A stretch of 64,000 bases of DNA from an uncultured Clostridia bacterium (GTDB lineage: Bacteria > Bacillota > Clostridia > TANB77 > CAG-508). The stretch is from positions 14,596-78,595 of the forward strand of contig CAKOVU010000005.1 of the NCBI GenBank assembly GCA_934122115.1, in the 5' to 3' direction. The notes under the pieces were generated by a model. It was not told the origin of the DNA and ran no database searches. It saw nothing but the letters and a program-made list of their open reading frames with translations. Shown here piece after piece: positions 34,789 to 36,896 of the stretch. A program made the translations under genes and the position numbers. How positions within the stretch are numbered: position 1 is the first letter of the stretch; every line of letters begins with the position of its first letter.

Positions 34789-36045
34789 GTGACTAAAATA
34801 GTAAAGAAGATTTTTATATTTTTATTGATTATAGTAACTTTGAATGGAGCTTTTATAAATCTGTGTTATGCTGATGATGTGGAAGAAGATGAAACAGAGG
34901 ACATTACAGAAACTGAAATTAATGAAGTAAATGAGGTTTCAAAAAATGCAGCTGAAGTACCAATATTAAACTCTAGAAGATGTGTAATATTTGACAGAAC
35001 ATCTAAAACTGTAATGTACGGTAAAAACGAAGAATTAAGATCCGCTATGGCCTCGACAACAAAGATAATGACTGCAACTATAGCTCTTGAAAATGGCAAT
35101 TTGCAAGATGAAATAACAATAGATAGAAAAGCAGCGGGTACAGGTGGATCTAGGTTAGGTTTAAAAAGAGGAGACAAAATAACATTAAATGATTTACTTT
35201 ATGGACTAATGCTTAGGTCTGGCAATGATGCAGCAGTAGCAATTGCAGAACATATAGGAGGAAGTGTAGAAGGTTTTGCAGAACTGATGAACCAAAAAGC
35301 GACAGAGCTAGGATTAAAAGACACTCATTTTGTAACACCACATGGTTTGGATAGCAGCGAACATTATACAACAGCGTTGGAACTAGCGAAATTAACAGAT
35401 TATGCATTAAAAAATGAAAAGTTTGCTAAAATAGTTGCAACAAAGAGTACAACAATAAGCATAAATGGCAATCCGCGACAATTATCTAATACAAACGAGT
35501 TATTAGGAGTTTTAAATGGGGTAATAGGAGTAAAAACTGGTTTTACAAATGGTGCAGGCAGATGCTTAGTTACAGAAACAAAAAGAGGAGATACAGATAT
35601 AATAGTGGTTGTACTTGGGGCCGATACAAAGAAAGATAGAACCAAAGATAGCATAAAATTAATAGAATACGCATTTGCAAACTTTACAAAAGTTAACATA
35701 AAAGAAAAAGCTATAGAGGAATTTGAAAAATGGGAAAGAATAAATAGAAATAGAATTTTAATAATAAAAGGTCAAAAAGATACAATAAGTTTAGACATTG
35801 GTAAAATTAATACCGAAACAATACCAGTAAAGGAAACAGACAAATTAGAAATAACAATTAACACTATAAATCAACTGAAAGCCCCTGTTGAGAAAAACAC
35901 AAAAGTAGGAACTATTATAATAAAACTAAATGATAATATAATAGATTCGATTGATATAGTGTGTGGCGAAAAGATAGAGCGAAAAACATGGCTAGATTAC
36001 TTTAAAGAAAATTTACAAATTTGTCGAACGATTTTTGAGATTTAA
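34789..36045 (+). CDS. D-alanyl-D-alanine carboxypeptidase (PBP5 family)
   Basis: Signal peptide. SxxK (ASTTK), SGN and KTG boxes. GTG start. Confidence 0.85.
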   Translation: MTKIVKKIFIFLLIIVTLNGAFINLCYADDVEEDETEDITETEINEVNEVSKNAAEVPILNSRRCVIFDRTSKTVMYGKNEELRSAMASTTKIMTATIALENGNLQDEITIDRKAAGTGGSRLGLKRGDKITLNDLLYGLMLRSGNDAAVAIAEHIGGSVEGFAELMNQKATELGLKDTHFVTPHGLDSSEHYTTALELAKLTDYALKNEKFAKIVATKSTTISINGNPRQLSNTNELLGVLNGVIGVKTGFTNGAGRCLVTETKRGDTDIIVVVLGADTKKDRTKDSIKLIEYAFANFTKVNIKEKAIEEFEKWERINRNRILIIKGQKDTISLDIGKINTETIPVKETDKLEITINTINQLKAPVEKNTKVGTIIIKLNDNIIDSIDIVCGEKIERKTWLDYFKENLQICRTIFEI

Positions 36046-36057
36046 TTTGAGTAATTA

Positions 36058-36086
36058 TTGACTTTTTTGTTTATATGGTTTATTAT
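36058..36086 (+). promoter_or_regulatory. Candidate promoter of a small RNA
   Basis: TTGACT, 17-nt spacer, TATTAT. Confidence 0.45.
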
Positions 36087-36092
36087 ATATTC

Positions 36093-36169
36093 ATACGAAT
36101 AACAGCAAAAAAATTCGTTTATGTTACTTAAAAACAACACCCACATCTGCGAATGTGGGTGTTTCTCTT
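36093..36169 (+). ncRNA. Candidate ~77-nt small RNA (antitoxin-like)
   Basis: Bounded by the promoter at 36058-36086 and the hairpin at 36137-36162. Has a 5' hairpin ACGAAT/ATTCGT. Its 5' part is a diverged copy of the antisense of the peptide gene at 36185-36247. Confidence 0.4.
36137..36162. terminator. GC-rich bidirectional terminator hairpin
   Basis: ACACCCACAT / ATGTGGGTGT 10-bp stem. U-rich tracts on both strands (TTTCTCTT on plus, TGTTTTT on minus). Confidence 0.65.
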
Positions 36170-36174
36170 ATGTA

Positions 36175-36202
36175 TTGACACTTATTAAAATAGTTTTAAA
36201 AT
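36175..36202 (+). promoter_or_regulatory. Candidate plus-strand promoter antisense to the peptide gene
   Basis: TTGACA, 16-nt spacer, TAAAAT. Confidence 0.35.
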
Positions 36203-36247
36203 TAAGTATATAAGTATCAATACGCATAACAGCAAAAAACTTTTCAT
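36185..36247 (-). CDS. 20-aa hydrophobic peptide, type-I-toxin-like candidate
   Basis: Hand-translated: MKSFLLLCVLILIYLILKLF. GGAGG lies 9 nt upstream of the ATG. The terminator hairpin lies about 25 nt downstream on the same strand. Confidence 0.4.
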   Translation of the reverse strand: MKSFLLLCVLILIYLILKLF

Positions 36248-36388
36248 TTTATGCTACCTCCTCTCAATATAGACTCTCTATAAAAGAGGTAAAATAAGTA
36301 TACAACATAATAGAACTAAAATAAAGAAAAATCGTATATGAAAAATCGACAAAAGCTTACGGAAACTTAAAAAAATCAAAATAATACA

Positions 36389-36417
36389 TTGACTTTACTG
36401 GCATGATATGGTAAAAT
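36389..36417 (+). promoter_or_regulatory. Candidate rpsL (str operon) promoter
   Basis: TTGACT, 17-nt spacer, TGgTAAAAT (extended -10). Confidence 0.5.
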
Positions 36418-36482
36418 AAAAAAGCTAGTGTGAAAGTATTTTGTTTATACTAGCAATAAGAAAATCAGGAGGTGAATTTTAA

Positions 36483-36896
36483 GTGCCAACAATTAATCAA
36501 TTAGTAAGAAAAGGAAGAAAAACAACTACAACAAAATCTACATCACCAGCTCTTCAACATGGATTTAACTCTATGAAGAAGAAGGTAACAGATAGGAGAG
36601 CTCCACAAAAAAGAGGAGTTTGTACTGTTGTTAAAACTGTTACACCTAAGAAGCCAAACTCAGCATTAAGAAAAGTTGCCAGAGTTAAGCTTTCAAACGG
36701 ATATGAAGTAACTTCTTATATTCCAGGAATCGGACACAACTTACAAGAGCATAGTGTTGTTCTAATAAGAGGAGGAAGAGTAAAAGACCTTCCAGGTGTT
36801 AGATACCACATCATAAGAGGAACTTTAGATACAGCAGGTGTTAAAGACAGAATGCAAGGTAGATCTAAGTACGGAGCTAAAAAGCCTAAAAAATAA
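36483..36896 (+). CDS. rpsL: 30S ribosomal protein S12
   Basis: [11 protein letters not shown] and [10 protein letters not shown] motifs. GTG start after AGGAGGTG. Confidence 0.97.

Follow-up and report, generated by a model that had tools for sequence, protein, structure and literature searches.

A conserved 20-codon hydrophobic peptide gene and a convergent gene for a partly complementary small RNA form a candidate type I-like module of par-type layout between dac and rpsL in a gut Clostridium lineage

We analyzed the 437-nt gap between dac (34789–36045, plus strand) and rpsL (36483–36896, plus strand) in a 64,000-nt stretch of contig CAKOVU010000005.1 (the whole stretch is called the window here), where an earlier note had proposed a type I toxin-antitoxin-like locus made of a very short hydrophobic peptide gene and an adjacent small RNA (sRNA). 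The DNA is AT-rich and belongs to a human-gut Clostridium sp.; the nearest record for Dac is the metagenome-assembled genome UMGS1650 (95% identical). The dac product is a PBP5-type D-Ala-D-Ala carboxypeptidase, and rpsL is followed on its 3′ side by rpsG, fusA, and tuf. Within the gap, the minus strand carries an open reading frame (ORF) listed at 36185–36247 (stop included) that encodes the 20-aa toxin candidate MKSFLLLCVLILIYLILKLF, with a Shine-Dalgarno sequence (SD), GGAGG (36257–36261, read from the sequence), 9 nt before the ATG. The plus strand carries a sigma-70-type promoter, P_A (TTGACT-17-TATTAT, 36058–36086, scoring 10/12), which would drive a predicted antitoxin sRNA of ~78 nt (RNA A, 36093–36170, its ends taken from promoter and terminator). 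Between the two convergent genes lies a bidirectional intrinsic terminator (stem 36136–36163) with T-rich tails on each strand, common to both predicted RNAs. The ORF with its translation signals, the hairpin and U-run 3′ of it, P_A, and the bounds, set by promoter and hairpin, of a predicted RNA of ~77 nt had all been described in the earlier note, and all were found in place.

Comparative loci are labeled L### here. A Dac-based scan of genome contigs returned 80 loci, with rpsL downstream only in L001, which is of the same species, and loci with an identical S12 were likewise all of the same species and nearly invariant. Other species with dac–rpsL synteny were reached through S12 homologues at 95–97% identity, and a metagenome pattern scan built to leave out the window's own species gave ten further loci of one sister clade. 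Three species-level clades bear the full module in the dac–rpsL gap: the window clade, L288/L289, and the L091 clade (11 loci). Among these lineages the Dac proteins are 56–63% identical and dac is 71% identical in nucleotides, and synonymous sites of the small ORF are near saturation between clades (pS 0.5–0.78); within the species (L001, L081–L090) the module is almost invariant. Metagenome pattern matches outside the family (e.g., L277 MKALFLLSYFIYLILKNYF, L233, L236, L246) stood without the rest of the architecture and were set aside as chance. Among the matches listed for a degenerate peptide pattern in viral contigs there were only chance ones, with no Met-initiated small ORF, and distant-mode BLASTN with the locus (261 nt) found no match in phage or plasmid collections. 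No Rfam family reached its gathering threshold on either strand of the 64-kb window, and at E up to 10 the gap region gave only sub-threshold, terminator-driven matches and no family.

The ORF is kept in frame, at 20–23 codons, in the three clades, with GGAGG and ATG spaced by 7–9 nt and the GGAGG invariant in all haplotypes; the homologue is MKSFILLIVLILIYLILKQF in L288 and MKPL[I/V]GLIVLLLIYLILKLF[L/F]GQ in the L091 clade. The 20 residues of the window peptide are almost purely hydrophobic. Homologues hardly differ in the C-terminal half, LIYLILK[L/Q]F, and the N-terminal half is variable yet hydrophobic throughout. The ratio of nonsynonymous to synonymous substitution rates (dN/dS; NG86, pairwise between clades) is 0.13–0.23 for the ORF and 0.1 or less for codons 10–20. 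In the L091 clade, 8/9 changes in the ORF fall on third codon positions (binomial P ~ 1e-3, by our own arithmetic); six are synonymous, one is TAA→TAG, and I5V and L21F are the only replacements (GTA→GTG, TTG→TTA, TAC→TAT, ATC→GTT, which combines I5V with a silent third-base change, TTG/TTT/TTC at codon 21, CAG→CAA, and TAA→TAG). Third-position bias together with dN/dS well below 1 is impossible in a noncoding frame, so the reading of the ORF as a chance opening is contradicted, and judged by these substitutions the ORF is evidently a real gene under purifying selection. The earlier note had raised the possibility that the ORF decays in relatives while the repeat persists; we found the ORF kept. 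In the same-species locus L088 the ATG is changed to GTG, by which a start codon is retained. An ORF of 30 codons on the plus strand (36121–36213) was rejected as a candidate, being not conserved and having no ATG at that place in L091.

The 5′ part of RNA A resembles the start of the peptide gene. The direct repeat 36088–36115/36215–36242 is 86% identical over 28 nt without gaps and ~81% identical over ~42 columns with gaps, extending to TTTATG[T/C]TAC, in keeping with the ~80% reported earlier; its full extent is 36088–36130 and 36215–36261. Within 64 kb, the 20-mer core ATACGMATAACAGCAAAAAA is found nowhere but in these two copies when up to 3 mismatches are allowed (expected number 0.09), and 1/100 shuffles gave two matches. 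RNA A is laid out as a 5′ recognition region (36093–36130) followed by the terminator hairpin, and its predicted fold is a 5′ hairpin plus the terminator. The first 38 nt pair almost continuously with the target region in the minus-strand toxin mRNA (repeat copy 2, 36219–36260), which takes in the 3′ end of the SD, the spacer, the AUG, and codons 2–9/10. The calculated duplex energy is −35.8 kcal/mol, 8 SD below mononucleotide shuffles (mean −12.8, SD 2.9), and the 14-bp perfect block that the earlier note had described, as extendable, lies within this pairing with further pairs on its flanks.

The two sides of this predicted interface have changed together. Cognate duplexes reach −35.8 (window), −32.7 (L288), −26.0 (L091), and −29.8 kcal/mol (L228), and non-cognate duplexes across clades reach −9 to −18.6, which is at the level of shuffles (−11 to −13). 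This pairing is kept while the sequences themselves diverge: the window and L091 share 46% identity in the sRNA 5′ region and 58% in ORF codons 1–11, and the repeat reads ATACG[A/C]ATAACAGCAAAAAA in the window, ATAC[A/T]ATTAGCAGTATGAAA in L288, and CCGAT..A.GGTTTCAT in L091. Five pairs differ on both sides between the window and L288 with Watson-Crick pairing kept (mRNA positions +11, +12, +14, +18, and +21), and there are at least four such changes between the window and L091 (+12, +14, +15, and +16). Within the L091 clade, the codon change behind I5V goes with a switch of one G:C pair to A:U, and an A·A mismatch is repaired at one position. By this pattern the predicted sRNA 5′ end co-varies with its own candidate toxin mRNA in a clade-specific way.

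The predicted regulatory elements (P_A, a weaker toxin promoter, a hairpin over the SD, and the shared terminator) are conserved as well. The P_A hexamers and their spacing are identical in the window, L091, and L288, and between window and L091 P_A is 83% identical, against 71% for dac. The region holds four terminator-like matches vs. 0.2 expected, and a bidirectional hairpin, with a different stem sequence in each, is also present in L091 and L288. The 3′ ends of the two predicted RNAs overlap at ~36128–36170 and, as one terminator would end both, their 3′ stem-loops are complementary. On the minus strand, the promoter that the earlier note had found unclear can now be placed at 36297–36325, where we read TTTATT (36325–36320)-17-TATACT (36302–36297); the homologous site is TTTACA-17-TATAAT in L288 (11/12) and, by alignment, TTTATT-17-TATAGT in L091. 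The toxin promoter and 5′ untranslated region (UTR) are 77% identical to L091, vs. 71% for dac. From this site the toxin mRNA would start near 36290 and measure ~163 nt (36290 to 36128). Its 5′-UTR is predicted to form a stem-loop (36254–36292, minus strand) in which CCUCU pairs with AGAGG and part of the SD is occluded, and an SD-occluding hairpin is predicted in every haplotype despite sequence differences. Another minus-strand match, TTTACC-16-TATATT (36293–36266), was rejected as the toxin promoter, its start point lying within the SD. Type I systems usually set a weak toxin promoter against a strong antitoxin promoter.

A second plus-strand promoter-like site within the toxin ORF, P_B (TTGACA-16-TAAAAT, 36175–36202), was also claimed in the earlier note as the source of a true cis-antisense transcript. 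The site is there, and at 11/12 it is the best promoter match of the region; an RNA started there would pair perfectly with the toxin 5′-UTR and codons 1–12. One could thus propose that this cis-antisense RNA is the main antitoxin, as in Ibs/Sib, and that RNA A is a decayed duplicate. No equivalent of P_B was reported in L091 or L288, however; its −35 falls in a GTGTCAA segment that is missing from L091, and no terminator lies between P_B and rpsL, whereas P_A, the 5′ complementarity of RNA A, and the terminator are conserved and co-varying in three clades. We regard this proposal as quite improbable. As P_B is not conserved in the sister clades, the cis-antisense RNA would be at most an accessory of the window clade, and we treat P_B as a clade-specific accessory or a coincidence.

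Two further observations concern the terminator and the sequence upstream of it. The 6-nt terminator loop (36147–36152) is polymorphic in the species: the window, L082, and L086 have CTGCGA, L001 and L083 have the reverse complement of this, TCGCAG, and most other same-species loci have TTGCAG. These variants look like a hairpin-loop inversion polymorphism, and inversion swaps which of the convergent RNAs bears which loop sequence. Also, no dac terminator was seen within 36046–36170 upstream of the shared bidirectional terminator, so that dac mRNA reading through would carry the entire antitoxin sequence in its 3′-UTR, and antitoxin supply could be coupled to dac transcription in this way.

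The dac–rpsL gap holds different contents in different relatives. In the sister species L097 (S12 95% and Dac 58% identical) it is occupied by a ToxN gene (PF13958; 1575–2096, minus strand) preceded by 3.1 copies of a 39-nt ToxI-like repeat (2145–2264), which is a predicted type III toxin-antitoxin system in the slot of the type I-like module. In another sister species, L101 (2170–2300) and L102 (130–260), a stretch resembling the sRNA 5′ region, ATAATAGCAAAAGA...TTTATGCTTAAAAA, and a terminator stand 3′ of dac, while the peptide ORF, the SD, and the second copy of the repeat are all missing; this remnant could be an orphan antitoxin or merely the dac 3′-UTR. In L287 only 92 nt separate dac and rpsL. 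With contents varying in this way among equidistant relatives, the gap appears to behave like a toxin-antitoxin or accessory slot.

The variation in the gap bears on a possibility raised in the earlier note, that tandem duplication of the rpsL (str operon) promoter or leader gave rise to the repeats. On this view the minus-strand ORF would be open by chance in AT-rich DNA. Both copies do follow plus-strand promoters that point to rpsL, and by our own estimate an open frame of 20 codons is not rare at ~28% GC. The rpsL promoter lies at 36389–36417, and it and the leader are intact in the module-less relatives L101, L287, and L097. A CTTACGGAAAC box lies ~25–30 nt upstream of the rpsL −35 (window 36354–36364, L091 2350–2360, L097 2373–2383) and is conserved despite diverged surroundings, whatever occupies the rest of the gap; promoter and box thus occur without the module in L287 and L101 and with ToxIN in L097. 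Since they are present regardless of gap content, the module is not part of the rpsL leader. This, the substitution pattern of the ORF, the strong terminator that would end RNA A, and the lack of a leader match in Rfam leave the rpsL explanation with next to no probability.

We read the locus as a candidate antisense-controlled toxic peptide module, chromosomal, type I-like, and par-type in build, and give this reading a probability of about 0.65. A weak minus-strand promoter (36325–36297) would yield the ~163-nt toxin mRNA, whose 5′ hairpin would partly occlude GGAGG and slow translation of the free message. The strong convergent promoter P_A would yield the ~78-nt sRNA, and both RNAs would end at the one bidirectional terminator with complementary 3′ stem-loops. 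The 5′ ~38 nt of the sRNA would then anneal over the SD and the AUG up to codon 9–10 of the toxin mRNA, blocking ribosome binding or initiation and probably also creating a double-stranded substrate for RNase. When the sRNA falls, the peptide would be made and inserted in the membrane, with depolarization or growth arrest as the outcome. We infer that both RNAs are made with the ends given, that the sRNA represses translation, and that the peptide is toxic. At the level of sequence the type I-like reading of the earlier note is supported: a gene for a small hydrophobic protein (under 60 aa), kept by selection and preceded by translation signals, stands next to an antisense RNA gene complementary to its mRNA, the ORF being conserved and the antisense match co-varying in three clades.

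The closest known architecture is par of Enterococcus faecalis pAD1, which fits better than the systems named in the earlier note (Ibs/Sib, ShoB/OhsC, and Zor/Orz); these share the type I kind, and the par layout is nearer. In the par locus (PMC7472228) the promoters converge on a bidirectional terminator that gives the two RNAs complementary 3′ stem-loops; the oppositely transcribed direct repeats DRa and DRb span the initiation site, and the SD is covered by a 5′ stem-loop. The window, L091, and L288 likewise have promoters that converge on one terminator serving both strands, as well as oppositely transcribed repeats over the translation start, their sequences differing in L091 and L288, and an SD-sequestering 5′ stem-loop is predicted in all haplotypes. 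The interaction sequences of par paralogues are poorly conserved, which prevents cross-talk (PMC7472228), and the clade-specific duplexes described here parallel this. The differences from par are also clear. The peptide has 20–23 aa vs. 33 aa for Fst, the complementarity is one near-continuous block of ~38 nt vs. two separate repeats, and the predicted sRNA is ~78 nt vs. ~40 nt. The peptide does not belong with the Fst/Ldr family: it lacks the PXXXG(C) motif, the conserved Trp, and the charged C-terminal tail (the L091 clade has only PLIG), and it has no Pfam or NCBIfam toxin match at E up to 10. The YUNR loop motif, which is absent from some par homologues (PMC7472228), is not consistently present: the window's toxin-strand terminator loop contains UUCG and no YUNR was seen by eye in the L091 loop, a comparison to be read with the inversion of the terminator loop in many strains in mind. 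We file the toxin candidate as a putative new, ultra-short family under par-type control.

The systems named earlier differ in arrangement. In Ibs/Sib of E. coli, the Sib RNA comes from the strand directly opposite ibs, to which it is complementary throughout. Here, in contrast, a gene of its own, convergent with the toxin gene, gives the conserved antisense RNA, whose match lies only in a diverged repeat, and only the non-conserved P_B could supply an antitoxin directly opposite the ORF. Pfam holds an Ibs model; the peptide matched no Pfam family, and no relationship to Ibs was detectable. ShoB/OhsC and Zor/Orz, in which the genes are divergently transcribed and ~18–20 nt pair in the 5′-UTR, share with the present locus a short hydrophobic toxin, an adjacent, separately encoded sRNA, and limited complementarity; unlike them, the genes here are convergent with a common terminator, and the pairing lies over the SD, the AUG, and early codons. 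ShoB has 26 aa and ZorO 29 aa (PMC8309996). The peptide is similar in size and character to Ibs, IbsC being almost wholly hydrophobic too, and the dependence of IbsC toxicity on C-terminal and central residues and not on the N-terminus (PMC8309996) is paralleled by the conserved C-terminal and variable N-terminal halves seen here. Like CD2517.1/RCd8 of Clostridioides difficile, bsrG/SR4, and txpA/RatA, the two genes are chromosomal, convergent, and 3′-overlapping in a Firmicute (PMC6563280). The type I toxins of clostridia and Bacillus have 28–60 aa with lysine-rich or charged C-termini (34–59 aa, charged tails, and mostly prophage-borne locations for the known clostridial ones), and their antitoxins act through long 3′ overlaps (PMC6563280). 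Unlike these, the main complementarity here lies at the translation start, and the locus has no prophage genes nearby.

Several observations weigh against the type I-like reading. That the peptide is toxic is an assumption drawn from its composition and setting. It has no charged C-terminal tail of the kind that Gram-positive type I toxins usually bear (PMC6563280), and at E up to 10 it matched no toxin family in NCBIfam and only a sub-threshold DUF3377, nothing toxin-related, in Pfam. The family is seen in one narrow lineage only and in single copy, and the window's toxin promoter, with a poor −35 match of 3/6, scored under the threshold of the scan. Two same-species loci carry changes in the ORF, namely loss of the start codon in L086 (ATG→GCG) and F4S in L084, so at least some strains can do without the peptide. 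Among 6368 other 43-mers of the window, the best, from ordinary coding sequence near 62.7–63.2 kb, reached −32.6, ~3 kcal/mol short of the predicted duplex. Because of this heavy tail of genomic 43-mer energies we did not use duplex energy alone as an argument, and it is the comparative data, rather than the energy, that show more than chance. Finally, the likeness of the two repeat copies could be kept by gene conversion instead of selection for RNA pairing.

This last point can be extended to an explanation without RNA-RNA regulation, in which copy 1 is dac 3′-UTR and terminator, the likeness arises by gene conversion, and the peptide gene is independent. The lack of a dac terminator before 36136, which places the sequence of RNA A in the dac 3′-UTR too, agrees with it, as does the retention of an RNA A-like stretch and terminator without the toxin in L101. 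So do the changes in L086 (equivalent of window 36245–36253), where ATG→GCG together with C→T in the spacer brings copy 2 closer to copy 1, which suggests that a short tract was converted to the sequence of the sRNA copy, or that the toxin was inactivated. However, the repeat in all three clades covers the SD, the AUG, and early codons, not arbitrary sequence, and starts directly after the conserved consensus promoter, exactly one transcript-start distance downstream; gene conversion would not explain these invariable features. The explanation also needs recurrent conversion, in three lineages, between copies of 20–40 nt that differ by indels, and we hold it to be very improbable.

In the main rival explanation, the peptide would be a non-toxic small membrane protein, a benign regulator or complex subunit, whose level is tuned by the antisense sRNA. 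Purifying selection and co-variation show a functional, RNA-controlled peptide and not toxicity, the missing charged C-terminus is atypical for Gram-positive type I toxins, and strains with start-codon loss or F4S fit any dispensable gene. Yet IbsC, at 19 aa and with no charged tail, is toxic (PMC8309996). The par-type layout, with a strong antisense promoter vs. a weak, occluded mRNA, is so far known from toxin control, and patchy presence with replacement by ToxIN is typical of toxin-antitoxin or accessory modules and not of a housekeeping subunit. We therefore consider a non-toxic role unlikely, though it keeps an appreciable share of the probability, and prefer the toxic-peptide module.

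If the toxic-peptide module is real, no type I toxin known so far in Firmicutes would be shorter than its 20–23 aa, and a peptide of 20 residues with the conserved half LIYLILK[L/Q]F would offer a minimal model of toxins that act on membranes. Type I systems are barely catalogued in Clostridia beyond C. difficile (PMC6563280) and are not known to be catalogued in uncultured gut lineages. Peptide, promoters, and terminator are retained in the three diverged versions, and each has rewritten both sides of the predicted RNA-RNA interface, an unusually clean three-way co-variation; such both-sided rewriting predicts no cross-protection between clades. The par-type control layout would not be tied to Fst-type toxins. 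Exchange in the slot, with a type I module here and type III ToxIN in a sister species, would point to phage defense or competition, not housekeeping. Taken jointly, that the peptide founds a new toxin family, that par-type control was gained independently of Fst, and that the gap is an exchange slot for differing RNA-antitoxin modules is a tentative combination that we hold to be less likely than not. Should the peptide prove non-toxic, it would still be a conserved, unannotated microprotein under antisense control. For the wider field the finding is incremental rather than surprising, type I systems being of a well-known kind.

Minor observations concern the rpsL side of the gap. The CTTACGGAAAC box is a possible site of regulation for the str operon promoter. 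The blank in Rfam covers the rpsL–rpsG–fusA–tuf region, where ribosomal-protein leaders might be expected. The rpsL 5′ leader (36421–36462) contains a hairpin, GCTAGT...ACTAGC, and occurs in two haplotypes within the species, one of which (L001, L083, L085, and L088) is marked by several substitutions and a deletion of 15 nt. The deletion haplotype is linked to a different promoter-proximal sequence in 3/4 loci (not in L088), and the two rpsL promoter/leader haplotypes adjoin a nearly invariant module.

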